64,000 nucleotides of DNA from Minutocellus sp. GHC0000111 (taxonomy: Eukaryota), in NCBI GenBank assembly GCA_977018835.1, contig OZ361259.1:3286001-3350000 (forward strand). The letters run 5' to 3'. A program made the translations under genes and the position numbers. Below are positions 2,279 to 64,000 of the stretch, in pieces. Each line of letters opens with the position of its first letter. Position 1 is the first letter of the stretch. The notes under the pieces were generated by a model, which saw only the letters and a program-made list of their open reading frames with translations, was not told the DNA's origin and searched no databases.

Positions 2279-2709
2279 GATAGAACGATATCGATTCAAA
2301 GGTGTATCGAGCGGTGAAGAGGGGCAATAATGGCGTATCCAGCCCGAGTAAAAGTCAACACAAGACGCTTCCGTGAGCGTCGACGGCCAGACGGCCAGAA
2401 GAGAGGACCCTTTCTACCTTTTCGAACGAAAACTCGGGGTTTTCTTGCCAAATCCAGAACCCGCTCGACACCAGCCAGGACGTGCTTATGTGCAGAACAA
2501 TGAAGACCTGCTCATCCATGACGCTTTCATGTATGCTTCTTTAGTCAGAACCCTCCTCCAGGCACTCCATGCAATCAATTGCATTTAGTAACAGAATAAT
2601 ACCACCTCTGATCATTAGGCGAATCATATCGCAATCAGTTCAACGATCGAAAACTGCACTCATCTCTCGCAAACCGACCCGACATCTCGGAACGCTACAA
2701 TTGCAATCG

Positions 2710-5300: not shown

Positions 5301-5342
5301 TCCATAAAAGCTAAGCATTTTACCACTGAGCTAGTGAGTCTA

Positions 5343-8297
5343 TTAGTTGAAACCCTCGGGCCCCGCCGCTTTGATTGTATCGTCAAATACTTGCTTTCTC
5401 AATAAGATTCGAATACTTCCTTCATAATCGCATGTGATGATTGCAGCACTAGAAAGATCATGATCCAGATCATCGAGCTGGTCTGAGATGGTCGGAAATA
5501 GACCACTTCGCTTCATGGCACGCTTCAACACAATAGTCGGAACAAAGTGTGCATCAGTAACAATTGGCTTCCGCTGATAGTTCGTAACTTGAAAGCTCTC
5601 GCTTGCCCATGACTTTTCGATTCCCCTACTGGTATGGATACCGTGCGAATCAATGCTCAAAGGGCGAGTTCGTGCGGTAGCATTCCAAATGTGCATCAAC
5701 CCACCGCTATCCGACCCCGAGATGATGTACTGTCCCGACTCGCTTATCCGTGCCTTGATTTGGAGGCTAGTGCTCTTCAAGCCCTTGTACTTCTTTTCTT
5801 GACAGTAGTCATCGAGTCCAAAGAGCCGCAGTCTCGAGTCGTTAGTGGACACAAGAATTTGTTCCTTGAACATTAAAGCATTTCGATCACGTCGTTTCAT
5901 CCGATGAAAGGCGACCTTGATGAGCTTGGGTGATACCTTCAGTTTTCTTGCCTGCCTCCGAACTTCTTCTAGATTCATAGATTTTCTGTTGAGCCGTCTT
6001 CTTCTCTTTGTCGGTGACGGCGTTTCTTTGTCACAATAGTCCTTGACAGTACTGGTAGGCGAAGTGCAGGACAGAGACCGCTCTCTTCCGTCGACATCCT
6101 TTCTCATTCGACGAAACGAGAACCCCGTGACTTTTGCTCCACTTTGTTTAGACCCATGCCGATCTCTAGCAGAGACCTGAGTGTAATACTTGAGACCATC
6201 TGGTGTTTAAAATAGAACTTGGCCACGGAACAATCCTGCGACGACATATTCTTCGTCAGGTGTGAAGGTCACAGAGGAAATACGATCTGGAGCCTGCGCC
6301 CACTCGGTAACTCGACCCGAGGGGGTATCCCAGACCCTTACCTTTCGATCGAAGCTCCCCGAGACAAAGTATTTGTCTTTCGTTGGGTGGAAGCTAACCG
6401 AAGTGACGAACGAAGCATGGGCAAAGGTCTTGAGGCTTGTCTTCTTGCTTACATGCCACAGTCGAACCGTCTTGTCCAAGGAGGCGGTGAGAAGAAAGCC
6501 CGTTCGTGACCAGGACAAATCGAAAATATCCGCGGTATGCTCTCGATATCTACGCAAGGGTTTGGAAGAAAGAATCTCAATGTCGGTGCCTAGTGCGGGC
6601 CCGCTACCTCGAGGATCTGTCGGTGGTGGTGCTCCTTTGGCTTCCTCCCACTCTTTCAGAGCGGCTGCCGTTGGGCAGAGGTCGATAGATTTTGGCTTCT
6701 TTGGGGCCACTTGGTAGATTGAAAGAAGACCATCATCACCAGCAGTGGCCAAATATCGTCCATCGGGGCTAAACTCCATCCTCCAGATTGGCCCGGCGTG
6801 GGCCAGGGTGATGCTGCCGATGAGAAGGAGAGGATCAAAATCTACAGCTCCCACTGCCTTGCCTACATTTGTTCCGCTCTGAGCTGTGACGACATTTTTG
6901 GGCAAGACATCCACAGGCTGAACCCCACCATCATTTGATTGGGCGCGCCGACGAAGCTTGATAGGACTAGTAAATTTGGGAGAGAATTCTTTAAACAGAC
7001 GTCTGGGACTTGGCAGCGTCACTGCCCGACGAAGTCGCAAATGGCCCCGTCGGCTGTGCTCCGAGGAGGATGGGGTATACACGTCCAGCGATGTGGAACC
7101 ATCATTCGATATAGAGGAGCCGTTCAAGTTTTCGTGCACTGCAAGTTCAATCTCCCCGTCGTCGTGAGTCTGGGCAATATCAATGCGAGGGCTATCGTCT
7201 GAGACGTCCTCCAACAAAAATGGATTGTCGTCATTATTTTGATCGTCAGAAGAAGCATCGGTTGAAGTAGTAGTTCGATCAGAATTTCTCGTCAGAGGAG
7301 ACTGTTCTTTGTGGGGACTTCTTGGAGACCAAGTCTTGTACCTTCGCAATGAAGACATCTTGGGTGCTTTGGACGCAGCATCTCTCATTTCGTCGTCGCC
7401 CTCCGGCAAGGGTGACGGTAGCCATTTCTCGGGTGATTTGGATAGGACCTTGTCCACCTCATTGTCCTCTCGTCTGCTGCTTTGACCTTCATCGTGCAGC
7501 AATCTGCATTTCGATATCGGGGAGTATGAGCACGACGACAAATCTTGATGCTCTATGGACTGGGCATACTCTAATGCATAGATATCTGCCGCCGATGGTG
7601 ATGCCATGTTGTACGATCGAGAGGGGTCGATGGCGCAAAATCTGCCACTATCTTCACCGCTGCTGTACCCATCAACGCTACCATCGTCGCATATATTCAC
7701 CTCATGAATGGAAACGACGGGGTGGATCGTATCATTTTCTTCGTACTCATCACGGGATGCATCGCGAGATGCTGTACCATGACTTTGTTGGTCGTGGGCA
7801 CTCGGCGATACCGACCTCTTTTCAATTTCGTGTTGCGTCCGCGTACGATGGTCCATTTCCGGCATGCTCATCGCCTCCTTTTTCGATGAACCCATACAAA
7901 GCCAAGCATTTTGCATTGTGACTTTATCGACACGAGGTCCGAGCCTTCGAAAGGCCGAGTTGGGCGAAACACCTGGCAAAGGCAGCGTCGTCGTCGATGT
8001 GGCATTGCTACTTTTGGGAGTTGGCGGCGGCAGACACAAGGTCAAATCCGCATGTCCAATATCACATTTCTCCTCGAAAGCATTGGCATGATCATCATCA
8101 TCGAACCACTGCGCCGATCGATTCTGTGGCGGCGTCTTCTTGTGTTGACTGCCAGTCGGCGACGTCTTTTCCACAGGCTTCGGAATCATATCATGCTCAT
8201 TAAAACTCTCCAAGGATGCATTGGAAAGCAAATCAAGGGCATCGTAGAACACAGTGGAGGTGTCCGATGGCGACGAGATCGTCTGCACATCGATCAT
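5343..8297 (-). CDS. WDR44: WD40-repeat protein, WDR44-like; one in-frame TAA at 6207-6209
   Basis: WD repeats (AHAGPIWRMEFSPDGRYLATAGDDG, HTADIFDLSWS..LLTASLDKTVRLW, FVSGSFDRKVRVW). The same frame continues past TAA as TPDGLKYYTQV...ILVSTNDSRLRL. Confidence 0.8.
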
Positions 8298-11636: not shown

Positions 11637-11698
11637 GTGAAACTAGCTAGACCTCCTCGATAAACGAGTGAAACTAGCTAGACCTCCTCGATAAACGA
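11637..11698. repeat. Perfect 31-bp tandem duplication (gtgaaactagctagacctcctcgataaacga x2) covering the stop codon of the TPR-RING gene
   Basis: Directly visible at 11637-11667 and 11668-11698. Confidence 0.95.
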
Positions 11699-13493: not shown

Positions 13494-14432
13494 TCAAGCC
13501 GACACCACAACATAATCTTCGTCAAATTCCAACCGATACCCCCTCCGCTCTCTACTAGTATCCAAACACTGCTCTTGAATAAACTTTTCCACCTTCCTTT
13601 CCGCCTCCTCCCTCCCTGCCTCCCCCAGCTCCTCCCATTCCGTCGGCGTCCACGTGTCTGCAATCGAAAACAATCTCACGAGATTGGTAAATTCTGCCAA
13701 CAGGTCCGCAGGTACCGCCAGCGAAACCTTTTGAGGATATGCCCTGTATGCCACGTTTGGCAAATCATCCAGCTTTCGACACAGCGTGCCGGTGTGCATC
13801 TCCACCTCGTGATTCGGTCGGAGGGAGCACATGAACTCGTACCACGGACCACGGGGGGCGATCAGCGCCACCACAAGACGACCATTGGGTTTTCGCAACC
13901 CCGCATGCAACTTTTGCAAACATTCCGTCCATTTCGATGTGGCGACGTGATACAGCACGTGCGAGCACAGGATCAAATCGTACGCGTCGGGGGCAATGGT
14001 GGCCTCCTCCAGCGTGGGTGATGGATGGACGGCAAAGGGTGGTTCCGACCGGGCATAGCTGGCCAGATAGTCCGGTGAGGGGTTGGGTTCCATCACCTCG
14101 ATTATACGGAAATGTCGGGCCAATTTGTGCGTGATTTGTCCGGGACCAGCGCCGACGTCCAGAAGTGACAGCCCATTATTTCCACTGTTTCGTTTCTCAT
14201 CATCACTACTACTCGTAGCATCGTTACTTATTGTTGAAGAAGATGATGACGATTGTAGTAGATCCGGTATCACTGTCCGTTCGAGGAAGGCGATGATGTG
14301 TTGGACGTGCTGGGAGTAATCCGAATACAAATGCTCCACTTGAGAGTATATTTCGTCGGTGAAGCAAGAGTGGCCGATGCCGGTGCTTGCTGGGGTGGTG
14401 GTAGCCGTGCCCTCGCCGTTCTTCAGGCTCAT
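13494..14432 (-). CDS. Class I SAM-dependent methyltransferase
   Basis: LLDVGAGPG (motif I), YDLILCSHVLYHV, LRKPNGRL. ATG at 14432. Confidence 0.85.
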   Translation of the reverse strand: MSLKNGEGTATTTPASTGIGHSCFTDEIYSQVEHLYSDYSQHVQHIIAFLERTVIPDLLQSSSSSSTISNDATSSSDDEKRNSGNNGLSLLDVGAGPGQITHKLARHFRIIEVMEPNPSPDYLASYARSEPPFAVHPSPTLEEATIAPDAYDLILCSHVLYHVATSKWTECLQKLHAGLRKPNGRLVVALIAPRGPWYEFMCSLRPNHEVEMHTGTLCRKLDDLPNVAYRAYPQKVSLAVPADLLAEFTNLVRLFSIADTWTPTEWEELGEAGREEAERKVEKFIQEQCLDTSRERRGYRLEFDEDYVVVSA

Positions 14433-15055
14433 GGTCGGTGGCCGACGTTGTTTCAAGCCTGCCAAGAGTGAAAAGTGAAAGTGAAAGTCGTTCTGTTTTC
14501 GTGACTTGTTCGACTGCCAATGTCAGCCGGCAGGCTTTTTCCGTACCTAGGTAAGTCGGCGCTGCAGGCTCGTATCGGAGGGAATTTTTTGTCGATCAGA
14601 TGCGATGCGTGCCAGAGATCGGCCTTGACTGAACTGGCGATGAGAGATGCCATTGGATGACAATATTGTTCTCGGTCCTTGGCTGAAACGGCAAAGAATA
14701 GGGTCTGGCTTGTCGCCCAGTACTCTGGCGTTACTTCGATCTGCGGCTGTTTTCCCCGAGGCGTAGCAGTCTAAAAAACGAGCCCATCTTGCGTGCCTTG
14801 TGCATGTGCTACTTTTGGACTCTTGACCGCTTCGCTTTTTCGTTCGTTCTGTGCCAACACAACCCTCCAGAAAGCGAGCAATTGTCATTTGCCCTGATAC
14901 TAGTACCCTGTTCCTCGTGGCAATCGGCCGGTCCTAGTGCATCTCTTGTTCGTTCCGATAACGTTATTTTTCGCTGATCGATTGCGTCGCGGGCTGGCTC
15001 CGTATCTTTTTATACGCTCTGTGCTGAGCCGAGGCAAAATATTATCAGTACAACA

Positions 15056-17278
15056 ATGCCGTCCTCGTCCGACAACGTCGGCACCCCAAATCGCCGTCGG
15101 CGGAGCGGCAGCCGCGGCCGGGCCAGGGTGTCGATCACCACCACCGACAACCATACAAACAATACCGGCAGCCACGAGGCCGACCCAAGCACCGCAGTCC
15201 TCGCCCCGGCCTCCTCGTCGGCCTCGGACCTTCGCCAGGTCCGCACCGTCCGGACGGGCGACACGACCGTCCCGACCGGAGCCCGCACGCGAGGAGGCGC
15301 CGGCAGCGGCAATGACAACAGCAGCAACACGGCCAACCTCACCGGCGGGCTGGGGAGTCCCAACTCGCACTCCACCGGCAACGATGGGCCCTCCTCCCAG
15401 CAGTTAGTTGGAGAAGGAGTGGGAGACGTCGTCGTCGCCCCCTCCCCCTCGTACCAATCCATGGGGGCCGGTACCCAGGCCACCGCGACGGCCGGGGGAC
15501 TTTTGTATTCGGCGCTTGGTACTATTAAGGAGTGGACCAACGACATTGCCAACGACTTAATGGCGGTGGATAACAACAACAACGATGCCAATGCCAACAG
15601 AACGTCGTCGTCGGGCGACAGAAATATGGAGGGGGGTGGAAATAGTGGCGATGGCAATCGGAGCAGCCATGCCAATGACAACAACACCAACGACAACAAG
15701 AAGAAGACCTCCAGTCCCGGAAGAAAATTGCGGGACGCCGTCGTCCGATCGCTGTCGCCCAGCAGCCGACGCGGCAGTGCCAAGAACGCTCAACAACAGC
15801 AGTCCTTGCGAGTGACGGGAACCAACCCATGCGGTCCGGCCCTCAGCCAGGTGATGGACGACTTTGTTCAGGCCACGACGATGGATGGCGATGTCAACAA
15901 CAACAATGCCAACACCAACAAGCCCATGTCCAAGATGCGGCAGAAATTAGTCAAGAGCACCACCAAGAGTGGGACCAATAGGAGCAACAAGGCTATATCG
16001 AGCAGCAGTCCCGGCCGGAACGATTACAGCCTCAATGGCAGCGAGTTGCTCGGCATACAACAAGGCCAAAATACAGATGGCATCGGGGTCGGAGGCGGGG
16101 ACTCCACCGTCGTGGCGCGGACCAACCCACGGAACGACAATGCGAATGAAAAGAACAAGAAACCGAGGGATGTTGGCAATGCTACCACCAATGCCACCAA
16201 TGACAGAGAAACGAAGCCGCAAATCATCGGTCCGGTCCAGTTCCTCCAGCACATGATGTCGACCAACTGCATGGCAGGTACCGACCTCGCCGAGCTTGGG
16301 TTTGGCGGAGGCGATTCCGACGACGACGACGACGGTTCGTCGTACGAGGACTCGTCCTCCGAGGACGAGTCGGATTACAGCGACACCACCGGCCACAGCA
16401 GCGGCCGGAATCGGCGGCAGCAGAGCAGCAGTGGGAGGCGCGCACAGCAGCAGCAGCGCCGCAGCGGCAGCCGGCGCAGTGGTGGTAGCCGAGGCCGAGG
16501 CCGGGGACGGCGGGGCAGCTCGACGCTGTCGGGCCGGCCCGAGAACATCCCCGAGGGAGACGAGGACGAGGACAGCAGCACCGTTACCGGTGCCGAGGAG
16601 GATTTGGACGTCATCGGACGGCGGCCCGGTGTTGGCGTTGTGAGGGACAAGGGTGGTGGCACTCCCAGGCAACACAACCGAAAGTCCGTCTCGGCCAATG
16701 CCAGTAGCGGTGACGTATCCGATCTTCGTCACTTTTCCAAGCAAATCATCGACAAAGGATTTCCACTCATTTTGCACCGAGTCCACAATTCCAAGCTTCA
16801 GATGGAACCAACGGACATTACCACCTTCCTCATGCTGGACGAGGAATCACCGGATCCCTGCTTGACATGGGACATCTACGACGATGCCGCCGGCAGGTCC
16901 AAAAAGGTCATCGCAAGAGGCAGCATTCCTCTTTTTGAGATTGCATCGGTCGAGAAGGCCGAGGCGAAGCATCTGCAGGCCTACCCCTTTGCCATGCCGA
17001 GCCATAGCTTCTTTGTTGCCCTTAGCAATGGCGGGGTCATCCTCTTCGAGGCCAAGGACAAGGACCAGAAGGAGGTGTTCGTCCGCAGCATCCGTTGGGT
17101 CGTGGCTCGTCTTTCTTTCAACCTCATCGTTGGCAACGGCAGCATCTGCACCGAGCTGGGCCTTATAGGCTGGGACGCATTGGACGAAGATGTTGATTCT
17201 ACCATGGACGACGTCACCAATCGTTTGGTCGATGTATCTGTTCAGGCTGTCGGTGCCAACTCAATGATGAAAGCATGA
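15056..17278 (+). CDS. Low-complexity (N/S/G/D-rich) protein with a C-terminal PH-like domain
   Basis: 740-aa ORF. The C-terminal SIPLFEIASVEK...SFFVALSNGGVILFEAKDKDQKEVFVRSIRWVV has a PH-like pattern. Confidence 0.65.
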   Translation: MPSSSDNVGTPNRRRRSGSRGRARVSITTTDNHTNNTGSHEADPSTAVLAPASSSASDLRQVRTVRTGDTTVPTGARTRGGAGSGNDNSSNTANLTGGLGSPNSHSTGNDGPSSQQLVGEGVGDVVVAPSPSYQSMGAGTQATATAGGLLYSALGTIKEWTNDIANDLMAVDNNNNDANANRTSSSGDRNMEGGGNSGDGNRSSHANDNNTNDNKKKTSSPGRKLRDAVVRSLSPSSRRGSAKNAQQQQSLRVTGTNPCGPALSQVMDDFVQATTMDGDVNNNNANTNKPMSKMRQKLVKSTTKSGTNRSNKAISSSSPGRNDYSLNGSELLGIQQGQNTDGIGVGGGDSTVVARTNPRNDNANEKNKKPRDVGNATTNATNDRETKPQIIGPVQFLQHMMSTNCMAGTDLAELGFGGGDSDDDDDGSSYEDSSSEDESDYSDTTGHSSGRNRRQQSSSGRRAQQQQRRSGSRRSGGSRGRGRGRRGSSTLSGRPENIPEGDEDEDSSTVTGAEEDLDVIGRRPGVGVVRDKGGGTPRQHNRKSVSANASSGDVSDLRHFSKQIIDKGFPLILHRVHNSKLQMEPTDITTFLMLDEESPDPCLTWDIYDDAAGRSKKVIARGSIPLFEIASVEKAEAKHLQAYPFAMPSHSFFVALSNGGVILFEAKDKDQKEVFVRSIRWVVARLSFNLIVGNGSICTELGLIGWDALDEDVDSTMDDVTNRLVDVSVQAVGANSMMKA

Positions 17279-17373
17279 AAAGAGAAGAAAGAATACATGT
17301 ATGAAAATAGATTTGATACGAAAAACACTATTTATGAATACCCAAAAACAGAACCAAAGACCGAAACTAATAT

Positions 17374-17692
17374 CCCTCGTGAGAGAATAATGCTGTTGAC
17401 CAGCCTTAACCCCGGAGAACCCGGGGTTTAGCAACTCGGGCAAAGCTAGGCGACAAGGTGACACGGTCTTGAAAACTCTGATTTGTCTCATTCTTGAGAG
17501 CCAAGTATTGATGCAAGCAAGCAGAGGAATCAACAATCTGAAGGCCCAGTGCACCTTGACTTGCTTTTAACAATGGATATGCAAAAAGAATGAAACGAAA
17601 AGATGTTATACCCCGGAATGCCCGGGGTATAATGAATGAGCCTCGGGAACCCCGGGAATCCCGGGGTATTTTGATGACACTTTTCACGAGGG
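17374..17692. mobile_element. MITE (~320 bp) with CCCTCGTGA terminal inverted repeats flanked by ATAT (or TA) duplication
   Basis: atat|ccctcgtgaga at 17370-17384 and tttcacgaggg|atat at 17682-17696. Several internal CCCCGG..CCGGGG palindromes. Lies between two convergent genes. Confidence 0.75.
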
Positions 17693-17733
17693 ATATATAA
17701 ATGCGTTAAAAATTACAACAGCATCGTTCCTAT

Positions 17734-19665
17734 TTATTCCACCTCGAGCTTATTCCTCAATGCTTCGATTCTAGCAATCGCATCTGCGTCATACGATGCA
17801 TCTAATATCCGCACCGCCAAGTCGAATGTTTTGTTGGCATTCTGCACCTCCCACCCATTGTTCCGGTCGACAAATTCCAGCATCCGCATGAGGAGCCCCT
17901 CGGCCCGGGGCGGCGAAATGCCAACCTCGCTGTTCTTCCATGCTTGAAGGACGGCGCTGAAGGCGATGGGATTCGGCCTGGCCTCTACCACGCCATCGTC
18001 CTCGTACAGCTCCTCCATGTGATCCAGAATGGCTTCGGCAAACTCGCCACATCCCTTCTTGAAGCTCTTAGCATGAGCGTGAATTACACTGGCATATGTA
18101 ATCTGATTGGGCTTGATGTCGTCATCTTCGGTATCCTCGTACAACGCCTCAATGCGATCCAAGAGTTGCTCGGCACGCAGCCCAGCGCCAGGGCCACCGG
18201 TACGACTCCACGCATTGATACAGGAGTTGAAGCTCTTGATGTCGGGCTTGACGGCCACGTCCCCGGCAATGTACTGGCGTTCCATGCTGTTGAGCAGATT
18301 CTCGGCGCGCTAGGCAGAGCCGTACTCCTCCGCACGGGCCCAGGCATCAATCACGGAATTGAAGCTGATGGTATCGGCACGGACGTCGGCGTCGCCGCTG
18401 GTCTTGGCCATCTGCTGCATGCGCGCGAGCAAGTCTTCGGCCAGCTCGGCACTTCCAGCCTCCCCGCTCTTGGCCAACGCCGCGATGACGGAGTTGTACA
18501 CCACGGTGGTAGGCTTGACATTGTCGTCACCATCGCGGTGGAGCTGTTCCATCCTGTCCAACAGCTGCTGCGCACGCTCGGCGGCCGATCGGCCCAGGAG
18601 GTCGGAATCGCCGGTGTTGTCGCTTTCGTCATTGTTCTTCTTGTTCTGCTTACCAGAGCCCGTCGAGGCCGAGGTCCACGCCTTGATGAGCGACGAAAAC
18701 GTAAAGGCATCGGGACTCACACCACTGGTACCTCCGGCAGCTCTCAGATCCTCCATCCGATCCAAAATGGCCTCGGCACGGGCAATGCCACCCCCACCCC
18801 GAATGCTGGCAAAGGCATCCAAAACCGAGTTGTAAATAATGGTATTGGACGCCAGTCGATCATCCCGTCCGGAATCGTCGTACAGCCTCTCCAACTCGTG
18901 GAGCAACTCCTCCGCCCGCTCGGCGTTGGCCTTGCCTCCGGCATTGGTGAGACATTTGATGACCGATCCGTAGGTAATGGCATCGGGCTGAACGTTCTTG
19001 TCTTGCGATGCCTTCATCTCCTCCAGCAATTCCAGGGCACGGTCGGCGCCGTCTCGCTTGCCGCGGCGGCTGGTGGCGTGGGCGTTGATGACGGAATTGT
19101 ACGTGACGGGCAGATTTTGAACCACCTCCAAATATTCCTCGGCCTTGTCGGTCATGCCCCGACGGGCGAAGCAGTTGATCAGGGCGTTGTACGTGTACGC
19201 GTTGGGACGGAGGTCGAGACGATTGTCGTCATTGGCAATTTGGGTAATTTTGGAAACGAGTTCTTCGGCACGGGCCGGGGCATTGCGATCGCGGCTCCGC
19301 GACCAAGCGCCGACGACCTTGGTGACGGAAACGACGTCGGCCTTGTCGAGGTTGGAAAGGAGGTACTGTTCGGCCTGTTCGGGTTGGCTGATGTTTGCAG
19401 CACCTCCTCGCTTATTGCTATTCTTTCCCTGATTACCGCCCTGACGATTGCGGGGACTCAGAATGTTCTTGAGTTCCTTGGTGAATTGACGGGTCTCGGG
19501 AGTCACCGTCGAGGCATACAGGAGAGATGTTGGGCTGATGCTGGCAGCAGTGCCGGCCGTTGCATGTGAAAGCGAACCGACATGTGCAGGAACGGGCGCA
19601 AAGGCAGTCACGCCGAGACCGCCGCAAGATACCGACACGAAAATAGCAGCGAGCGAGAATTTCAT
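17734..19665 (-). CDS. Plastid-targeted pentatricopeptide-repeat (PPR) protein; one in-frame TAG at 18310-18312
   Basis: Presequence ...GVTAFAP. Repeated PNAYTYNALIN / PDAITYGSVIK / PDIKSFNSCINAW motifs. Reads GSA*RAENLLNSME through the stop in the same frame. Confidence 0.88.
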
Positions 19666-19910
19666 GCTGCAGATAATTGTGATATATTGTCCAACGTGAC
19701 CTTTGCTGATGCTCTGTTCTCCTGGTCGATCGATACCAGCCAGGTCAGCAGGTCAACGTGATGTGGGCGATGTCTTGCTTCTTCCGATTGCTTGGCTGGG
19801 AAACGGCGTCCTTGTGTCTGTCCGAAAACTCCCTCGTGCGCACTTGGCTGGTGGCTCTCGCCGCAGCCATCTCATTCCTCATTCCGGCTACTTTTCAACC
19901 TTGCTTCAAG

Positions 19911-20693
19911 ATGACAATGACGACCAGATTGCTTGCGTTCGTCGCCCTCTTCCTTGGCAGTGTCGAGGCATTTGCACCCGCTGTCTCGTCAGGCGCTTTG
20001 AGAATATCTCGTGGTGATAATTCTGCTAGCACATCATGTGCTCGAAATACATGCCACCAATCATTATCAAGCCGACTTTACCTATTTGAAAAGATGTTCG
20101 AAGAGGAAGGTGCCTTGGGCAAGGGCATCACCGTGGGCAAGGTGCAGGTAGCCCTCGATTGCCTCAACCGCGGTTCGGACTCCATCTTTGCCCTACTGGA
20201 AAAGTCCGCCAACAATGGCGGAAGCGACCCGTGGGAGCTGGCCCAGCTCACCAATTCCGTTTGTCTGTCCCTCCTGCGCAAATCCGACGAATGGGTCGGG
20301 GCCTGCTCCGATTCCAAGTGGTTCAAGTGGGAAGACGCCGGCAAGGCGGAAAGTCTGTACAACGACTGGGCCAACCGAGAGGCCGCCAAGTTTGAGAAGG
20401 AGTATGTGCCGACTGCCAGTAGTCGTGCAGATTCCGACACCGTTCCAGGTGGACCGACTACCGTGGTGGTGAGCATCATTCTGGAAATACAGGGCGATAC
20501 AACCAAGTTTGAGGGTGCCGGATTTAGCATTGCGGGTACGAAGGAGGTATTGTCGAGCATTGCCAGCGACGTCAACGTCGAGGGCGGGGAATGCTTGAAT
20601 GCCGTGGAGGTGTTTTGGACGCCAAGCGACAAGGACGAGGTATTGACCAAGCAGGATCTCATCATGGACTTTCCCGAGTTGATTGACTTGTAG
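19911..20693 (+). CDS. Plastid-targeted DUF1517-family protein
   Basis: Presequence ...GSVEAFAP; VGKVQVAL; C-terminal AVEVFWTPSDKDEVLTKQDLIMDFPEL typical of DUF1517. Confidence 0.8.
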   Translation: MTMTTRLLAFVALFLGSVEAFAPAVSSGALRISRGDNSASTSCARNTCHQSLSSRLYLFEKMFEEEGALGKGITVGKVQVALDCLNRGSDSIFALLEKSANNGGSDPWELAQLTNSVCLSLLRKSDEWVGACSDSKWFKWEDAGKAESLYNDWANREAAKFEKEYVPTASSRADSDTVPGGPTTVVVSIILEIQGDTTKFEGAGFSIAGTKEVLSSIASDVNVEGGECLNAVEVFWTPSDKDEVLTKQDLIMDFPELIDL

Positions 20694-20892: not shown

Positions 20893-21480
20893 CTAGCCAG
20901 CTACTCTATTCATCGTTTTGAAAAACGCAAATGGATCATTTGACCAATCTCTTTGATTCATGGTAGCCTCGAAGGCATCACGCTTTGCCCTGCGTTGAGC
21001 ACGATCAGCTGCCTCGGCGGTGGTTTCGGAGTATGCCCTGGCAATATCGTCGGGAGAATTTTCGGCATCCTGGGCTTCAAAGACCGCGCAAAGCGCTGCG
21101 TTTTTATTGGCAAGGAGTTCAGTGTATACCTCGCGGGAGATGAGATGTTCGAGACCTCTAGTGTCTTGTGTGGTTGGGTCGAGGGCAGTCCTGTGGCGGA
21201 TGGCGCGCAGAGTCACGGCGATGTCCTCCTTGCATTCTTGCCGATCCCCTTCATTGAAGTACACGGATGAGATTTGCTCTTGCTCCATGTTGTGAAGGGA
21301 GGCGATTGTCGTCACTTCAACCTGGCTGGAAAATGTGATGGTTAGATGCTTTGCTTTTTTCTGGGGTCTCCGCTTTGGAGCATTTTGTGTATGCGAAGGG
21401 ATCGCGAGAGTTGCTGCGGAGTACAGGTAGGCGGACTCACTTGCAACCGGCGAGGGCAAAGAAGGTGGTGTAGCAAGCAT
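20893..21480 (-). CDS. Hypothetical protein of a lineage-expanded family (V/IxF...DI..T...TRGLEHL motif); paralog of 25285-25779
   Basis: Shares TRGLEHL and RAxxxAxxDA with the ORF at 25285-25779. Confidence 0.7.
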   Translation of the reverse strand: MLATPPSLPSPVASESAYLYSAATLAIPSHTQNAPKRRPQKKAKHLTITFSSQVEVTTIASLHNMEQEQISSVYFNEGDRQECKEDIAVTLRAIRHRTALDPTTQDTRGLEHLISREVYTELLANKNAALCAVFEAQDAENSPDDIARAYSETTAEAADRAQRRAKRDAFEATMNQRDWSNDPFAFFKTMNRVAG

Positions 21481-21951
21481 GGCGAATGAGCAGAGTGGTG
21501 GTGTTAGCTTGTCTATTGCAGTAGAAGGATTTGCGGGCAGGCGTCGGCTGCTGTTTGGCTTACTGCCTCCTGCTTGGAATGATATCGGAATGCAAATCCT
21601 TTGCATTCCGACAGAAAAGGCGGGTTTCCAGGGTGCCTAGGTACGCACTCTCTGCAATAATCAAAGCGTGCACTTATTGCAACTCAAGTTGAACCTCTCA
21701 AGAAAAAAGAAAGTCGAACTTTCGGAAACGAACTGGCGCAAAAAGTCTTTTTGTGCCTGACTTCTCCTTGAACTATCGCAACGCTCGTGGCAAGGAAGTG
21801 CGCACTAGCTAGTAGCGAGCACAGGCAGCCAACACATTGCCGAGAACGTGCCGCACCGTGCAAATCTGCCTCGTGCACATCATTTTTTCTCACCGAAACC
21901 CTCCTTCCAACCCTTCCTCCTTCCTGCGCAATTGATTTGCATTGCAAAACA

Positions 21952-22212
21952 ATGAACATTCTCTCATCATCAAACAACACGGACCTTCGAAGAGTCGATT
22001 GTCATCAAACAAATCCAAAAGCTCGTCGCACTGTTAGCTTTGACAGAAACACCATCATCCTTGAAGTGTCATGTCTTCGAAGCCACACCGAGTCGAAATG
22101 ACCATGTTGTGGCTCACCCCTCAAGACAACCTCCGCATCAAAAACGATGTGTGAAACGACGGACCGTCAAGAACGTGCAAAGAGGATGTGATGAGTCGAT
22201 CATGACCGACAC
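21952..22212 (+). pseudogene. Truncated, frameshifted paralog of the 25285-25779 gene, interrupted by a Copia relic
   Basis: Across two frameshifts it reads RTVSFDRNTIILEVSCLRSHT / EMTMLWLTPQDNLRIKNDV / KRRTVKNVQRGCDES. The paralog reads KVAFVETVVIHEVLSLQSYTDVEMEKCWLTPRDHCRMQKDIKRTTKYMRRGCDES. Confidence 0.75.
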
Positions 22213-22229
22213 ACGGCACCAGCGCGGCA

Positions 22230-22970
22230 GATGGCTCTCTCCGCACGACTGCGACTTGGGCATTGTCGGAACGGAGCATGCGCGTGACGCCATTGTGCCG
22301 AGTGAAATCCGACAAGGTCTTGACGAAAGAAGATTCAGACTGCATGCCACAGACGGCGTCAAACCTTTCGCCAGTGGCTCGGAGGAGTTGACTGATCTTG
22401 CGCTCGACGCGCTGGTCCAAGCAGGTGGTCCATGCAAGCGCTCGACCTCCTTGAGCTCCGGACAAAGCATCATGAGCAAGCTCAATGATGGAACGATCAG
22501 GAACGATGGCCTTGTGTTGAGTCCAGCGTCTGGGCCTCCAATTGTCAAAGAAGTCCCAATCAGTGACGTCATGCAACGCCATCCGCCGAGCAAGAACGCA
22601 ATCCTTCACATCGGAAGGTCCGAACCGCCGCAAGGCACACAGCAGGCGACCGAACATCAGCGACCCAGCCACGGCAGTGTGGTCCCCAACTGTCTCCTCC
22701 GTCGTTTCGGAGCCGCGGATGTCGGCGGCGGTGGCCAGCGCGTCGAGAGCGGCGGTGTCCGTCATGGTTGTCTATTATGGCTGTGTTGGTTGTTTTTCAA
22801 CGCGGTGAAAGCAAGGCAAGATTTTTTATGAAAAAAAATAAAAAAAAAACAAAAGAGCGGCGGCTCGTGGTCCCGCTCAGGCCGAGGGGAGCTTCCCCCC
22901 GAAAACCAAAACCCCGCGGCTCAAATGAACCGGTAACATGAGGTCATCGCCGAAATCAATTGAATGACAT
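22230..22970 (-). mobile_element. Internally deleted Ty1/Copia relic: 5' leader, putative gag start (ATG 22765) fused to an integrase-core fragment
   Basis: AVCGMQSESSFVKTLSDFTRHNGVTRMLRSDNAQV resembles the diatom Copia integrase core (VYGM.SE..F..TL.DFIR..G....L.SDNA). Poly-T leader upstream. Boundaries are approximate and no LTR pair was found. Confidence 0.65.
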
Positions 22971-25284: not shown

Positions 25285-25779
25285 TCACGAATAAATGACA
25301 TTCTTCTTGACAAATTCGGCATCAAGATGTGCCTTTTGCACGGCACGATCCCGAGCGCGCTTCGACAGCCTTGAAGAAGTGGCGGCAAAGTTCCTTGATG
25401 AATGTAGTTCATTCTTCGACTGTTCGGCGAGGACAGCTTGGACCAAAGTATCTCTCTCGTGTGTGAGTTCTCGAAAGATGTTGATATCTCTCAAATGTTC
25501 CAGGCCCCGTGTGCAGAGCCCATCATGCGTCGACTCGTCACATCCTCTTCGCATGTACTTGGTTGTTCGTTTGATATCCTTTTGCATACGGCAATGGTCT
25601 CGAGGGGTGAGCCAGCACTTTTCCATTTCGACATCGGTATAGCTTTGAAGACTTAGCACTTCGTGGATGACGACGGTTTCTACAAAGGCTACTTTGTTGC
25701 GATGGGAACGAAAATTGGCCGAGCGGGCATCGTTGTGGTGGGCAGGAAGCCGAAGGCGATGGAACGAGTGCTCTTTCAT
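25285..25779 (-). CDS. Hypothetical protein, same family as 20893-21480
   Basis: KVAF...CW....DIKRT...CTRGLEHL...AVLAEQ...ARDRAVQKAHLDA. Confidence 0.65.
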   Translation of the reverse strand: MKEHSFHRLRLPAHHNDARSANFRSHRNKVAFVETVVIHEVLSLQSYTDVEMEKCWLTPRDHCRMQKDIKRTTKYMRRGCDESTHDGLCTRGLEHLRDINIFRELTHERDTLVQAVLAEQSKNELHSSRNFAATSSRLSKRARDRAVQKAHLDAEFVKKNVIYS

Positions 25780-26506
25780 CCTTCGGGTAGGTGGGTTCGA
25801 TCAACTCACTACTTCGAGTACAGCTCTGTGGCAACGCTTTTGAGGAAACTGTCCGAGCATTATGCCTTTTTTGGTTTTCGCGGTAACGCCGATGCATGTA
25901 GGAATTCCTACTTGAACTGGATGACGCAGCAGCATGAACTCTTATGCGTGATCACGTGTAAACACAATGACGCAGGATGCAGCCTTTTGGCGTGTTCCAT
26001 TTGTGTGAGTCAGTTTCATAATCATTCCGGATGCCCGGGTTACACCACATACTTGCAGCATCTCTATTATGCGACATCTTGAAGTTGTGTACAGAGTTAC
26101 TAAGGGCGCCGTTTTTTTTGTGTGTCTTTCAGCCTCGTTCTGTGATAGGATACTCCCGCCAATAAACATGCCGGAAAGTTTGACACTCCCGCCACTTGAC
26201 CCGGCTGGCCGGCGATGTTGGCAAGTGCGGACTTTCTTTTTCCAGCGGTGAGCCTACACTGAAATTGAGTCAGTCCAAAATCATTGATACGACCAGCTTA
26301 TTGCAGAGCACAAAAATCGTCCCACCAACGGATTTTCGCGATCCTTGAAGTAGAAATCGGGATCAATCGAGTGCCCCTTCCTCTTGCGTTGCGCGTGACG
26401 ATGGCCGGCCGACGGTTCGCCCTCTCGCCGCCGCCGACCGCGCGCGCCCCTGCTTCATCGCTGTCTACTCGTTGCGCCTTGCTTGTTGAGAATACACATA
26501 GAAATA

Positions 26507-40649: not shown

Positions 40650-42070
40650 AGAAGCGAAGCGTTATCTTAGATATATCCCATGTATGTTATTCAGAGCTTG
40701 AGCGGTGGTTTGGATAGTCACTGATCTTGCAAGAATGCCTTTCCCAGCAGCAAAATATGTGACACGCGAAATTTTGATGTTCCGGACTGCAGGACAGGAT
40801 GTGCACATCGTAGGAGCATCAGCGAAGCTAAATCCAACACCACAAGCATAGGATCGCCTTACATGTAAATACGATGCATAAGAGGTTTTCAAAGCTTGAG
40901 CGGCGGTTTCTTTCTCTGCGCGCTTCTCGAGATCACCTATTATACTTCGAGGGGGCTGGCGGTTCAAAAAAACTCCAAAATCCGGGACTCTAAGGGACTA
41001 GAGGCATCAAAATCGCAAGAAGTGAGTGCAGACTTTAACATAGAACCACATCGTAACCTTAGACATGATCTAAAGGAGGTATCAAAGGCTTGGGCGAAGG
41101 TTTCCTCAACTACTTGGCCTCCAAGGATGACTATTATTGTTCCCGAAGGTCAACGAAGGCAAATCTTGAGATTTTTTGCGGGCTGGTAATATGTAAAACT
41201 CGAGGTTACGAGTGCAAACTCCAACATAGGAGCATATTGTTACCTTGTGTATGACCCCCGCAATATATTCAAAGCTTGGTCGAAGGTTTCGACTGCTACA
41301 GGGCCCTCATGGTTGCCTATGATGGTTCCCGGGGGGCTGATGATGCCGAAAACTGGGGTTTTGGCGAAGTGATGGCATATGAACCTCGATCTTATGGGTG
41401 CAAACTCCAACATAGAACCACAGCGCAAGTTTACGTAACACCCACAGAAGGTATTCAAAGCCTGGACAGAGGATTCGGCTGCTACTTGGCCTCCAAAGGT
41501 TACTGTTATTGTGATCGGAGGTCAATTAGAGAAAATTCTGGGAATCTGGGTGGGAGGACGGCACATAAATCTCGATCTTATGAGTGCAAGCTTAATAATA
41601 GAAGCATGGCGTTACCTTTGGTATGTCCCAAGGAAGGTACCCGAGGCTTGGGCGAAGTTTTCCACTACTGATCCGCTCTCAAGGACAACTAGGTCGTCAG
41701 CGCCAGATTTGGGAAGTTTTTGCGAGATAGTGATGCATAAAACTAGAAAAAATACATGTAAGTATAAAGTCAAGCATCGATGCACAGGGGTGCCTTAGGT
41801 ATGACCCAAATAGGAGGTATCTAAGGTTTGGGCGAACATTTTCACTGCTGATTGGCTCTCAAGAGAGACTACAACCACATGTTATCACCGCGTGGTAATG
41901 ACGCCCCTTGATTTTGAGATTCGGGGCAAATAAATGAAATTCGCTGTTGAAGTGTAATTAATTTCTAACACAGACTCACAGCGTTACCTGATGATCCCCC
42001 GGAAGCAATTAGTCAAGGCTTGGGGGTAGAGTTCCAGCACTTATCGCCCCCCAAGGGTGGCTATCACTCC
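40650..42070. repeat. Degenerate tandem array of about 8 units, period 180-198 bp
   Basis: The gcttg-like core of the conserved aggtattcaaagcttgggcgaaggtttc block recurs at 40696, 40894, 41088, 41274, 41460, 41646, 41826 and 42018. gagtgcaaactccaacatag recurs at about 41025, 41210, 41396 and 41582. Confidence 0.85.
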
Positions 42071-57433: not shown

Positions 57434-57553
57434 TGAGGTGCAGATGCTGCTCGTCGTAAATTGCCATAGCTACTTTGGTATAGCAAAAAATTGGGATAAA
57501 TGCACGATAATGCAAGTGAATTGCAATAATAAGCTTAGCATAATACTGACTCT

Positions 57554-58512
57554 CTATTCCACGGCATGATACCCGCAAAGTGGGGCTTCCGCCACCTTTA
57601 GCTCGCGAACGGTGGCCGTTTCCAAATGTGGCAGCGTTCTGTGCAACGATCCGTCCATCTTCTTGAAGCCCGTCTGCAGTATTTGCAATACGTCGCCGTG
57701 GGCACATAGAATGCATTTATACTTCTTCTCTCCTTCGCTTGCCTTTGTCAATTCTTGGTCAATATCCAGCACAAGCTTGGTTGTTCGTTCGACCACACTG
57801 TACACACTCTCCACATCAAACTCATTTTGTGTTGGATCTTTGATATCAATGTCCCAAACATCCTGGTATCTGTCATCACTCCCTCCATTCAATGTGCCGA
57901 AGTTCCTTTCCCTAAGCTTGGTCTCGAGCACAACGCCATCCTTGTACAAGGGGATGGATGATGACATGCACGCATCGGCCATATGCTGGGCGGTCTCTCT
58001 GGCACGCTTAAAGTCGGATGAAAATATTGCGACGCCACAATATTCATCGTTTCCTTCACCACCATCGCCATTATCGTTGTCGGCATGAAACTGCTCGGCG
58101 AATAGTTTGCCGGCCTCACGTGCCTGCTCATGCCCAAAGTCGCTCAGACCATGCTCTACCGTCGATATGGCCGGATCAGAAGAAATGATTTTGGCAACGT
58201 TGGCCAACGATTGTCCATGTCGTAGGGCAGAATAGGAATGGCGCAGCGAGCCATCTTGACCTGTGGCTGGTATAGACAGCAGGTGGTTGGGCTGCTCGGC
58301 CGACGTGGAGAATGCAGCAGCTGTCATTCGAGCGGCATGCTGATATCTGGCAACGGAAGATCTACCCAGAGTGATGATGGAAGCTCTGCCTAACGCACTG
58401 CAAGCAAAGGGGGTAGAAGTAGACAGGGCTGCCGCCAGGGTTGGTGCTGCTGCCGTCATTATTCTCATCATCGCCGTTCGTTCCATCCGCCATGCCGATA
58501 TGCCATGCCGGC
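57554..58512 (-). CDS. Histidine phosphatase / phosphoglycerate-mutase-family protein; 5' end interrupted by the transposon
   Basis: LRHGQS, SSDFKRARETA, LRERNFG, AHGD motifs. Remaining in-frame ATGs in MERTAMMRIM. Confidence 0.85.
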
Positions 58513-59214
58513 CAAGAGCACATAACAAAAAATAGGTGGTGCACGCATGGCAGAAAGCAAGGGAAAAATTCCACCATGTTTGGCACTCTTTTTTTGGGTG
58601 ATTGTGGATGACGTTAATTTCTGGCCCAAGCGCGCATCTTTCATCTTCAACGCGCACCGCGCAAATAATACTAGGCCTACTACGCCATAAGCCGAAGGGC
58701 TGCTTCGTCGTGTCGCCCACATCCCCCTTCCGGCGGAACGAGCCGCCATGGCGTGCAGGTGCCCTCTTGCGTGGTGCCTGCAACAAGTACGCCGATCCGG
58801 CGGCGTCGTTGCCTAAGCAAATGGGCGATTGCTTGCCCACCGTCAGCGCGAGCTGCCGCTGCCGCCCCCTCCCGTCGTACTTATTGCCGCCAACTGGCAT
58901 GTCCGGTGCTTTTGTATTGATCAACCCATCGGTTCCGGCGTGCTGCCCATCGAGATGTGAGAAACATTCTGTTCGTGAATTTATTCATGTGAGGGCATCT
59001 ATGGACGGTTCTTGGCTGGGCATCATGTATTCATTCTCCCGAATCATACTGAGTTCAGCTGGTAATGGTAGCACGGTCAACAATGGCGGCAGCCGATGTG
59101 GCCGACAAGGGACCTTGCGTCCGTATCTTGTCAGCCCCTTTTGCCGCTGGAGTCACCCGCTTTCCATTTCTTGCTTTGCTAAGTTTGTGTACAGATACGA
59201 ATATGTACATTATT

Positions 59215-62200
59215 TTATGTGCATTTTTCAACATCTCCCTCAAAATCTAACTTCTTCTTTGCTCCACTTGTCGCCTTCAATTTTGCTCGCAAGGCCATGT
59301 CGGCTTTATCAATCTGCTGCTCATTGTATCGTCGCGTCGCTTCTCCAGCGCGTGCATGGGAGGCTTTCTTGACAATCTTGGTGAATATTATCTTCTTTTC
59401 GCCTTCCGGTAGGTCAATATCGTTTTCTGCTTTGTTGAATAGTCCCCACAAGTCTTCGTCGCTGATGATGGTCTTGTATTCTCCTTGATTGCCTCTTTGC
59501 CGACTTCTTCGATGGTCTTTTCATTCACTAATTCCCTTGTTCTTTTCATTACCATCCTTCCAAAGGGCACATATTGGGGGGCCAGGAGGAATAGGCCACC
59601 GCGATTTCGTATCTGGTCGATTGGAGCGTAATATTTCTGTAAGTATCCTGCGTCTTTTATTGCTTCGCGATGCAACAGTCTCATTGATTTCACATGCAGC
59701 ACTGCCTTCCGATCACTGTTCTCACACGTATTTTCATCCTCGTCTTCGTTGTCTTCTTCGTAGAAGAAGCTTTCAGAGTCTTGCCACTTCTCACGATATT
59801 GATCGAGCACTTCTTTCATGGCCCAACCGACGAAGTTGGTTACTTCCGAATTCTCTTCGTCCTGGTCGATGGATCCCTTTGCGTTACCGTTGGTGGTGAT
59901 AGCGGCGGTACTGGAATCACTGGGCGATGTGAAAGTATCGATGATGGCTTCATCAAGCCAATTACTGAAAAGCCGAGCGAGATGTTGCTCCACGATGGCG
60001 GCGGCAAGATGAGACTGGGACAGAGACGCCGGCAGCAGCTTCCGCAGATCTTGAAATTTCTTGCTAGTAATGAAGTCATGCTGGTGCCACCAGAATGACT
60101 GTTTATGGCCGGACTTCTGCATGATGCTCTTGTCTAGTGATGTAAATGCTGTGAGTATCATTTGCTGGCACGCCAAATTGAAGAGCACTTCGTCTTCCTC
60201 ATCTAACGATGCGATTGCTTTGAAACATTTCTCTTCTTCCGTTCCAACGCTCACTCTTGCCATTCCCTCAAATGTTTCGTCATCCAGCAGGTAGTCAGAG
60301 AAGTTGGAATCAATGTTGTATGTCGCCATCGTTTTGTGCAGACTGCGCATGCGCTCGGTGGAGCCAACCGCCGGTTGATCTCCCTCGCCATCCTCATCGT
60401 CGCAAGGAGGAAGTATCGAGATGGATGCCTCTGCCGGCTTCTTTTTCTCGTCTCGCCACGACTTTACCACCAGAGCTCGGCGATCGTCTGTGCGCCCCAT
60501 CACCGACTCCAGACGATTCCATGACACTGCTACCTCCGTGGTGTCGCCTTCGTAGTTTGGGTTGGATTCGTTCATAATCTGGATGCTGTCTTGAGAGTTG
60601 ATGGCTGTTATTGCGGACGGATAGTTGTGGACAGAGTCGCCGCCCAAGTATCGAATGTGTGAGAAGGTAGCTTCAAGCGATGACTGGTTGGCATGGAGGA
60701 ATTTGACGTACGAGGGAGGGTTCGGTAGCAGGAAGACGAGTCGGCAGCATTGAAAGAAGCCGCAAACACCAATCCGAAGGTTTTTGTACGTGGTGGTAGA
60801 AATATAGGACTTTTCCCACGCAGGGTTGCCTTGTTGCTTGAGCTGCAAAGAGGCGAGTCGCCAAGCCTCGAAGTACTCCAAAGCAGACCTAGTCTCTTTC
60901 TCCTTCTCGTCGATGTTGTCTGGGGTGACACTGACCTCGCCATTCAAAAAGTTTTCAATAAAAATAGTCCCGACATGAAAGTTGTACTCTACGTGAGCCA
61001 GGTCTTGCCGTAGCTGTTGAAAGTTGGCGTCGCCTAGGACATTGGAGATTTTGCTAACTTCGCTCGCGTTGTCGGACGACGGAAAGACCGTCGTTCATCC
61101 CGAACGAAGCTCACCATGGTGCCCCCCGCTCTTGACCGCTGCACATTTGCAAGGTAAGACATGGGCATTCCCGAGGCTGGCCGACACCACTGCGCTGCTC
61201 ATGCGAAAGTTTCAGCTTCATTGGACTGTTGTTGCATGAGAAAACATAATTCAAAACAATCAACCTGTGTTTGAGCACGCGAAAAAGGGCCACGGATGAG
61301 AAGTGACACCAAGAGAGCCACAGTCGCCCAATCCACCCAGAATTGCAGAGATGCACGCCTGAGATGTGCATGAAAATGTTTGTTTGGTTGATTGTTGTGT
61401 GTTTGATTCGTGTCCGCCCCCGCATCGGCCGCCAATGAGAGCAAAATTTCGTCCGGCGTCGTCGTTTTTCTCGCGAAACTTTGCCCCCACCCACCAAACA
61501 CATGTTGTGCTTGGAATTTTTGAGCTGCGCCTTCGATGCCACATTTCTACAGGGTGTCTAGATGTGTGGCATTTGCTCAGAATTCTCAATTCTCCCATTC
61601 ATTCCAGAGATTCTTGGGGGCAAAGGTCTGCCGGACGGCGAATTTCGCGTTCTCCCATGCTTCGCCGCGTTGAAAACGGTCGACGGAAAGACGAATGTCC
61701 AGTTTTCGGGTCGAGCGGCTCACCTAAAGCTGGACCAACTCACCACCCTGGGAGAAAAACGCGCCGTGCGGGGCCTCCCTGCAAGCTGGCGAGCTGAGTT
61801 TTGAATCTCACCCAAAATGAAGCCCACCAGGTCGCCGACTGCAGCCGTCTAGTCCAGAGCCAGCTCAGCTGCATCGCCGGCAGCGTCCTTGACAGCCTCC
61901 TTGGCGAGCTCCTCCAAGAGCACTGACCTCGCCGAAGCATGGTCGCTGCCAACAACGTGGTCAGCAGCCGTCTTGAAGAGGTCAAGCATGACGCCATCCT
62001 TCTCGAGGTCAAAAGCGACTTTGCAAGCATCACTCTCCAGCTTTGTCTTGGCGTAGCGCAGGCGGTCCCTGGTGGAGCGGGCAGCTTTCCGTTGGTTCTG
62101 CTGGCGCTCCTTCAGCCTCGTCGGGGTCAGGTGCTTGATCGGAGCTCGGCTGCTGGCGCCGACCTGCTTGGCGCGATTCAGTTGCTTCCTGTTCTCCCGT

Positions 62201-63367
62201 CGGAGGAAGTTTTTCCTTTCAGTCGAGCACGGACCACACAAAATGCCATCCCGCTCGAATTCACCTAAGGAGACCAGCCCACACGAAGCGTCGCCGAACG
62301 ACGGACGGACAAAAATTGACCCAACTCCTTTCTCCTAGCTTAACGCTAGCAAAATGCCGATGGCTGCCCCGCAAAATACGCATTGCTGCCTGACCCTCCT
62401 TGGACGCAACAAATCCCTCTCCTTGCATGCTGTGCATTCGCACCAGTGAAGCAGTCAAGTCGGCGGCGGATGGCAGCACCAAGCCAACCTCGTCGTACAG
62501 CCGAGGATGTTTATCAGGACTGATAGCAGAAAATGCGGTTGCACAGCCATCACACACGTCCACCGGAGCCTCGGAAGTTGCACCAATAAATATCGAACAG
62601 TCCGGGCTCCGCCATGCTCCATCCTTTTGCGTGAAAGAGAAGTATTTGGAACACACTCCACGACCAATGTCTCCAGCTTGCAGCACGCTCAACAACTGAG
62701 GATGGCCACCAATACCGGACCGACACGCATCACAGATTTGCACTACGCCAGATCCATCGCCACCGCCAGCACCGGTGGAACCACCACTAATGCCTGTGGT
62801 GTCACACGCCGGTGTAATCGGAGCGGCCGCCCCATTGCCAACCTTCGCTTTCTTGGGGGTCTTGTGCGTTCCCAAAGGGACCGACGGATGTTGGTCCGCC
62901 TCCAAGAGCCGCTTGACGCTGGCTGCCGACCGAGAGCTTTTGCCACCGAGCACCATCATCAAGGATCGGGACTGATCGATAGTATGGTCTGGAGGCCAGA
63001 AATATTTACCATTGAACTCGTTGATGGCTTCTGCAAAACCGTGTCTCTTTGCAATCTCCGCAGGAACGGGCGTTGTCGGAAAATGGCTCTTGCCGTCTGT
63101 TTCTCCAGCAAAGTATTGAAGCGCGTCAGCAGAGAAATGATGCTTCGCAATCTCGTACCTCTCAACATCAAATTTGAATCCAGATAAAGTGAGATTCTTC
63201 TTCAGAACTGCCTGGTATTTTTTACTCTTGTCACTATCTTTCAATCTGAACTCGAACCCGCCGCTTCTGATGTTGTTGTGAGACTCGTCGATAATGCGAC
63301 GTATCTTGTCGCAATCGTCATGCCTGCACAGGCATTTCCTGGCACCAGCAGGGGTGCCGCTGCTCAT
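59215..63367 (-). pseudogene. P-element/THAP9-like transposase, disrupted (frameshifts ~62328 and ~59480, TAG 61849, central deletion, nested insertion)
   Basis: N-terminal THAP-like KCLCRHDDC...IAKHHF; coiled coil; QNSARQLAGRPRTARFSPRV; C-terminal catalytic-Glu motif HANQSSLEATFSHIRYLGG (compare xNQDxLExxFxxxRxxGG). The central Asp motifs were not found. Confidence 0.78.
61086..61681. mobile_element. Nested ~600-bp non-coding insertion with short TIRs and an 8-10-bp TSD
   Basis: Direct repeat cgacggaaagac at 61077-61088 and 61681-61692. Ends gaccgtcgttca... / ...ttgaaaacggtc are imperfect inverted repeats. Confidence 0.6.
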
Positions 63368-64000
63368 GACCGCGGCAACCAAAGGGCACACGACAGGTGA
63401 TGTGCATCCGCGGTCGATGCTCGCGAAAAGAAGAACCGATGCCGGCCAATAAGTACAATGGAGGGCAAGTTCCGACGCGTGGCGCGTGCGCGCAAAGGAG
63501 GGTTGGAAAATTCGATGTGCGCTCGCGCAAGGCACTTGGGCCAAAATTAACGGATTCCACATTCACCCCAAAAAAAGAGTGCCGAACATGGTGAGCGCAA
63601 AAGCGCGCGCGTGGACCACCCTGTTATTTGTTATTTGCTCTTGATGCCGGCTGCGCGGCAGCATGGCGAAAATGAGCACCCCCCGTTTCTTGAGCTCCCG
63701 AAAATAAGCAAGAAACCCTCATAAGCCGATAGGAACTCCAACGCCTGAGCCACTCATTCAAACCTGATGATAGCCACCACAATGAGGTGCCTTTCGAAGC
63801 GTCCCCTTGCCGCCGCTGCATTCGCTGCTGTAGCATCTGAACCTACGTTAGGGCCCCATGGCCCTTGGCCTCTCGCATCTTGCGTGCAAGCATTTTCTTC
63901 TCCTCCCAGAATAACCAGACTTGCGCGCACGCAACGATGTGTCACAACGTCCACCACTGACGCACGAGACACCGAAGCCCCTAAATTGCCCGACTCGCAT

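Follow-up and report, generated by a model that had tools for sequence, protein, structure and literature searches.

TpA loss by transition in a composite of two DNA-transposon pieces from Minutocellus sp. GHC0000111

The P element and its MITE-like insert

The window, which is the whole 64-kb stretch of DNA that was analysed (contig OZ361259.1, positions 3,286,001 to 3,350,000), contains a P-superfamily DNA transposon in which part of the transposase gene has given way to a MITE-like repeat. The features of the element are as follows.

58505..58512, + strand: left 8-bp TSD of the P element, an identical 8-mer flanking both ends
58513..63643, - strand: P-superfamily DNA transposon, non-autonomous copy (TIR alignment, ends and TSD, PF21787 in a sister copy, depth)
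59218..61037, - strand: C-terminal part of the transposase, frameshifted near 59480
60986..62376, no strand: longest RTAY-free tract of the window, 1392 bp between flanking sites
61039..61741, no strand: MITE-like repeat (contig joint 61038>61741, depth, substitution spectrum)
61742..62265, - strand: P transposase segment, TpA-free family-wide (2 TpA in the window, 0 in the majority contig)
62303..63499, - strand: N-terminal part of the transposase, with TpA losses in the window copy or its lineage at 62356, 62509, 62535, 62733 and 63387
63644..63651, + strand: right 8-bp TSD of the P element, the identical 8-mer

Other copies were reached via run contigs, protein clusters and metagenome loci, and the contigs of four runs (X1, X3 and X8 among the labels; at most four samples from two studies) were compared with window positions 57500-64000. 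The P family is at several-fold single-copy depth, with ~1050-1700 over the element in X1 against 150-170 in the flanks (~7-10x flank). Its likeness to the P-element superfamily (THAP9/TNP-like transposases) lies in the imperfect TIRs of ~120 bp, the 8-bp TSD and a TNP-like RNase H domain in a sister copy, whose core protein P0056 matches PF21787 at 27.7 bits against a cut-off of 24.6 and is the one protein of eight to pass. The window copy differs in that its catalytic core is gone, replaced by the MITE-like repeat, and none of its four ORFs matches PF21787. A THAP domain was not detected by Pfam in the N-terminal ORF or in P0043. The C-terminal part of the transposase (59218..61037) has a normal TpA density of 9.8 per 100 codons. 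Frameshifts vary among P copies (59480, 60694, 61932, 62300), and none of the proteins examined spans a full-length transposase.

A contig from X1 bridges 61038 to 61741 through 1141 other letters, and the ~0.7-kb sequence that occupies this place in the window reaches a depth of up to ~14,000-20,000, roughly 100x that of the flank. Therefore, the insert is a high-copy MITE-like repeat that replaces the transposase core. An earlier note on this DNA, made from the window's letters, had proposed an insertion nested in the P element and a TpA-poor domain, 61057-62265, centred on it. The insert does exist, at 61039-61741, but the transposase sequence is replaced and not merely interrupted, and the insert forms the left 57% of the domain rather than its centre, such that the domain consists of 685 bp of MITE-like repeat and 524 bp of P coding sequence. 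Two other descriptions of the insert were rejected: a segment at 61090-61683 bounded by an 11-bp direct repeat, given that this repeat is internal to the element, and degraded transposase, given that the 1141 bp of actual core have another sequence.

The right TIR of the MITE-like repeat lies at 61719-61741, and the left TIR is absent from the window copy. A search with the TIR pattern found 22 loci in metagenome_contigs, of which five true relatives were kept and 17 matches to the short pattern only were dropped, and 0 loci in viral_contigs. The motif is found at the left end in X1, X8, L004, L012 and L020 and at the right end in the window, L003 and L005; none of the loci examined has it at both ends. 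At the TIR-less end, L003 (1060-1130) and L004 (960-1030) share another terminal sequence although opposite ends are missing, so the ends vary. In L003, a relative of the P terminal repeat (138-289, 86%) lies ~90 bp from a MITE-like copy (383-1105), and the two elements thus adjoin in another sample too. More rearranged copies of the P::MITE type exist: P0034 fuses P residues to MITE-derived residues via a further deletion and maps to window positions 61589-61923, and P0043 stops at the same P::MITE junction (61741).

TpA depletion and the direction of change

The seven TpA sites reported in the earlier note for 61057-62265 (61155, 61247, 61548, 61559, 61725, 61850 and 62054) were all recovered at their exact positions by counting on the sequence, as were the absence of TpA from 61249-61547 and the 17 TpA in neighbouring 60601-61020. 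At the window's own O/E, ~33 would be expected in the domain (Poisson p 5e-8). The TpA O/E is 0.12 in the domain and 0.56 across the 64-kb window, and the domain has the minimum TpA count among all 1209-bp segments of the stretch. In first-order Markov simulations (n=200, 64 kb each), the lowest 1209-bp segment has 15 TpA. CpA and TpG are slightly raised in the domain (rho 1.24 and 1.23, vs 1.16 each in the window).

The letters present before the losses can be read in the repeat from other copies. A MITE family majority over 61030-61480 was built per site from the summed contig depths of the four runs, with 40 of 41 differences listed, 38 used and two that are minor in X1-X3 dropped; it is a rough majority that may mix subfamilies, and the remainder at a site may hold other letters. 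Alignment to other copies with a substitution spectrum had been suggested in the earlier note, and it bears out a loss of TpA: three of the 13 majority TpA in 61039-61480 survive in the window copy (in CTAA, GTAA and ATAA), and all ten losses relative to the run-contig majority are transitions, with TA>CA in six and TA>TG in four. Changes fall on 10/26 TpA bases and on 4/196 other T/A bases (p 6e-8).

The five metagenome relatives have ordinary TpA (O/E 0.39-0.58). Tests of the window against each of them give p 9e-6, 2e-6, 5e-4, 0.006 and 0.14, with L004 the relative that yields no significant TpA excess; L005 and L020 are near-identical and therefore not independent. Compared with L020, 11 of 15 TpA read CA or TG in the window (six CA, five TG), three are kept, one reads GA and none is gained. 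When polarity was assigned by leaving one copy out at a time, the window had lost 8/9 majority TpA and gained none at 35 possible CA/TG sites, and each other relative had lost one or two and gained two to four.

Such transitions could be written by an error-prone polymerase of the Pol eta or iota type in repair tracts that follow transposon breaks. The signature of these polymerases is WA>WG, the changes do lie in kilobase tracts in break-making elements, and the insertion coincides with the 1141-bp loss. A polymerase fits less well because ApA is undepleted (O/E 1.42), and the loss of 10/13 sites with almost nothing else (4/196 at other T/A sites) is too selective, making this an improbable source.

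In the P half of the domain, the 61742-62265 segment, the MITE-less majority contig has 0 TpA and the window has two. One of these, at 61850, is a CAG>TAG nonsense change in the window copy that is absent from all four other proteins that cover it. The other, at 62054, is an ancestral Tyr common to the outgroups and is Cys in 6/11 covering proteins. From its amino acids, this P tail should have 9.0-13.5 TpA by five codon-usage sets and 9.5 by shuffling of its own codons, with 0/5000 shuffles as low as the observed two. Given the TpA-free MITE-less contig and the codon shuffles, the P segment was probably stripped too, in an ancestor common to all the copies examined.

The depletion would need no special process if it came from ordinary composition, whether coding sequence rich in GC and poor in Tyr or selection against TpA, or from an artefact of assembly or base calling. 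The P tail does have a GC3 of 0.70, its homolog P0031 has only two Tyr there, and the window's A at 61292 is missing from the X1 and X3 contigs. Composition alone is rejected by the codon-matched shuffles and is at odds with the ordinary TpA of the MITE family; artefact is at odds with the recurrence of the TpA-free P tail in contigs of other runs and with Y>H and Y>C changes common to sister copies. This explanation is very improbable, and the TpA loss in 61057-62265 is real and mutational.

The earlier note had called Tyr plausible at ACKV, ADHV and SDHA. These places are ALKA, AKHI and DNKD in P0031, the nearest homolog, and at ADH three of five homologs have His, so the homologs do not support these guesses. 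At KHL, a site outside those guesses, all five aligned homologs have Tyr; P0035, outside the alignment, has Leu.

Differences between young P copies point the same way as the MITE spectrum. Over the 4081 positions covered by the four long P contigs of X1 there are 19 differences, with five listed differences outside this span left out. Transitions fall on 8/235 TpA bases, 6/568 CpG bases and 1/3278 other bases, so that, as fixed differences, TpA changes are ~110-fold above those at other bases. One of the eight TpA changes (61851, the nonsense change) is a gain of TpA. Tyr is the outgroup residue at six variable codons (60749, 60338, 59645, 62055, 62509 and 62733), and at a seventh, 59798, the outgroups are split; part of this was read by eye. 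At codon 62356, nine of 13 proteins have Tyr, three and the window have His and one has Cys; judged from these codons, the TpA is mutated both ways, to CA in one lineage and to TG in another. Comparison between copies thus demonstrates transitions specific to TpA that affect both strands, lie in tracts, occur in elements that have no RNA step and recur in separate lineages; for the MITE and for several Tyr codons it also shows which way they went. CpG decay is a second class of change in both elements (58860, 59079, 60321, 61292, 61996) and is consistent with CG methylation of these repeats.

Timing and sequence context of the losses

The Y>C change at 60749 and the Y>H change at 60338 are common to the window, P0011, P0017 and P0022, and P0015 has 60338 only. 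A trio of residues, H/H/A, is common to the window, P0043, P0045 and P0054. These shared states imply that the window's lineage multiplied after those losses. At 62733 the window differs even from sisters that share its other losses. In the MITE part, the non-majority depth in X1 at nine of the ten lost sites is 1150-5500, vs ~320-360 for the window's lineage, with 61197 the sole lost site with a non-majority depth as low as that lineage. This high depth suggests that the repeat was eroded stepwise along its own lineage, mostly before the present insertion.

The earlier note had taken the domain for an independent instance of a local process acting in a DNA transposon. TpA-directed transitions are indeed found in both the MITE and the P sequence, but an independent single event at the locus is not supported. 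The P half is equally TpA-poor in the MITE-less majority contig, an outcome that the earlier note itself had named as a refutation and that applies to this half. As far as the copies compared can tell, most changes are common to sister copies and the tract is unlikely to be the product of one event here. A single event on 61057-62265, either after the MITE insertion or on an ancestral P::MITE from which the MITE later excised cleanly, would explain why the RTAY-free tract runs unbroken across the MITE and P parts and why losses at 62356, 62509 and 62535 cluster just right of it. It would not explain why MITE-less P contigs are TpA-free over the same segment, why the junction has no footprint relative to the outgroup (P0056 and P0032 vs P0031), why nine of the ten lost MITE sites are so widely shared at depth, or why the P sequence left of the MITE has normal TpA; we consider such an event unlikely. 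The three losses right of the tract lie within 180 bp of each other and are a weak hint of spreading.

The process acts on DNA transposons, as the element types indicate (for P, the TIRs, 8-bp TSD and PF21787), and reverse transcription is therefore not needed, in agreement with the earlier note.

All 17 polarised events (ten in the MITE, seven in P) are TAY on the strand of the changed A (p about 0.003), although the test is modest, as 20/26 MITE target positions were already TAY. With the first TpA-poor domain of the window included (4/6), the count is 21/23 (p 0.017). RTAY sites of the MITE were lost in 8/8 cases and other contexts in 2/5 (p 0.035); in P the difference is not significant (p 0.11). 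The two TpA-poor domains are the two longest RTAY-free tracts of the window, at 1392 and 1330 bp, and the next is 519 bp. Among the 15 TpA of 60986..62376, nine are YTAR (p 0.001, with boundaries set post hoc), and the survivors of the first domain show no such enrichment (3/9, p 0.29). Both strands were struck about equally. The earlier note had hinted at a context preference from survivors mostly in CTA or TAG; these are 5/7 in the domain vs 37% in the window, which is weak evidence alone, and the TAY bias of the MITE and P events makes a preference likely. A preference for 5'-TAY-3' has moderate support.

Since TpA is palindromic, A>G in TAY and T>C in RTA are a single event read on opposite strands and look alike in sequence. 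A modified thymine (of the 5-hydroxymethyl- or 5-formyluracil type) at RTA in silenced repeats could thus mispair and be fixed as C, and thymine modification of repeats occurs in other protists. Neither such a base nor its enzyme is seen here, and the TAY>TAR order has a parallel among deaminases; a modified thymine is accordingly given little credence, about as much as a single local event.

The first TpA-poor domain, 21815-22772, has one TpA in 958 bp. Within it, 22035-22205 aligns at 72% with 25530-25690, and eight TpA of the paralog read CA in five cases, TG in one, AA in one and are kept in one. Its sequence resembles a copy, now frameshifted, from a host gene family with further members at 25288-25800 and 20896-21636. 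An assignment of this domain to a Copia integrase was withdrawn, given that no Pfam family, and no retroelement domain, was found in its six ORFs (a weak DUF2259 row has E 0.12), that no homolog was found and that it aligns with the host gene family. Elsewhere in the window, four repeats spaced 186 bp and 67-70% alike lie at 41023-41691, and a perfect 31-bp tandem duplication lies at 11637-11698.

Candidate mechanism and relation to known systems

The locus probably joins two pieces of DNA transposon whose TpA was lost by TA>TG/CA, for the most part before their arrival here, likely through host adenine deamination with a preference for 5'-TAY-3'. A MITE copy would have been eroded stepwise on its lineage and then inserted into the P element, removing 1141 bp. 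The P segment would by then have lost its TpA to an older hypermutation tract, in the common ancestor of all the copies examined. The P::MITE derivative would then have multiplied to about four copies, with a few more TpA lost meanwhile. The chemistry may be conversion of A to inosine on transiently single-stranded DNA by a candidate TadA/ADAT-type enzyme, a step for which our confidence, taken alone, falls somewhat short of even. Two things speak for such an enzyme: the existence of TadA-derived editors that prefer YAC, or YAY over YAR, and the proposal of ADAT2 in a preprint on Bigelowiella natans. The involvement of a host adenine-deaminating enzyme is an inference by analogy with these systems.

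The adenine base editors ABE3.1 and ABE8e-YA are described as making A>G changes on DNA at YAC, or at YAY over YAR (PMC12528748), a likeness to the TAY context here. As described there, they differ in being engineered and in also accepting CpA, whereas here only TpA is altered.

The closest known process is that in B. natans, which the TpA-erasing process in these DNA transposons resembles in kind. The main text of the preprint describes TpA>TpG/CpA hypermutation of integrated viral DNA, which in mutation-accumulation lines arises de novo at ~1000 times the background rate; the TpA-depleted CDS are enriched for DDE-endonuclease and RT domains, and an ADAT2-like deaminase is proposed, not demonstrated (Mettrop et al., bioRxiv 10.64898/2026.01.13.699255). 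By that account, the likeness extends to TpA>TpG/CpA transitions on both strands (six CA and four TG in the MITE here) and to changes nearly all at TpA (10/26 vs 4/196 in the MITE and 8/235 vs 1/3278 in P, plus a CpG class of 6/568). In B. natans the process is described as confined to foreign or mobile DNA; here, 61057-62265 is transposon DNA and the first domain resembles a broken copy from a host family. The systems differ, again by the preprint's account, in that B. natans is a rhizarian alga and the host here is likely a diatom, that de novo mutations were seen there in viral inserts of 25 and 186 kb whereas fixed differences are seen here in ~1-kb DNA-transposon tracts, and that here eroded copies went on multiplying. 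The likely placement of the host among diatoms draws on the sole homolog with a species name, from Minutocellus polymorphus at 43% identity, and on genes of diatom-like appearance. The main text of the preprint contains no occurrence of 'diatom', 'stramenopil', 'trinucleotide' or 'context', and therefore reports no TAY preference in that text, although its supplements may hold flanking contexts.

RIP in ascomycetes is similar in that its transitions target a dinucleotide, strike both strands and cluster in repeats. RIP turns CpA into TpA (C>T), which is the opposite direction; here the TpA O/E is 0.12 and 0/35 MITE sites went from CA/TG to TA. No report of TpA hypermutation in diatoms was found in the literature searched, which was thin on subscription papers. 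What appears to be new here is copy-resolved evidence in DNA transposons, together with signs of eroded copies still multiplying. A role in defence would need to be squared with the fact that eroded copies evidently still multiplied.

A bolder proposal, which we would sooner doubt than accept, is that diatoms carry an active genome editor resembling RIP but of opposite chemistry. This enzyme would deaminate adenine in DNA and clear kilobase tracts of mobile DNA of their TpA, beginning with TAY, and cut-and-paste transposons would be among its targets. It would be an ancient defence of the whole SAR group, common to diatoms and Rhizaria, and transposon lineages with no targets left would go on spreading. 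A natural process that raises the mutability of TpA in transposon copies to ~three times that of CpG would be a major force on diatom repeats, and the Tyr codons lost to it would lead repeat dating and annotation astray. What one preprint reports from a rhizarian would extend to culturable stramenopiles with genetic tools, where the enzyme would be findable, and a natural DNA adenine deaminase would be of interest to base-editor work. Young P copies, which differ by <1%, and a repeat family with roughly 100 members offer a ready reporter for the rate, context and timing of the process.
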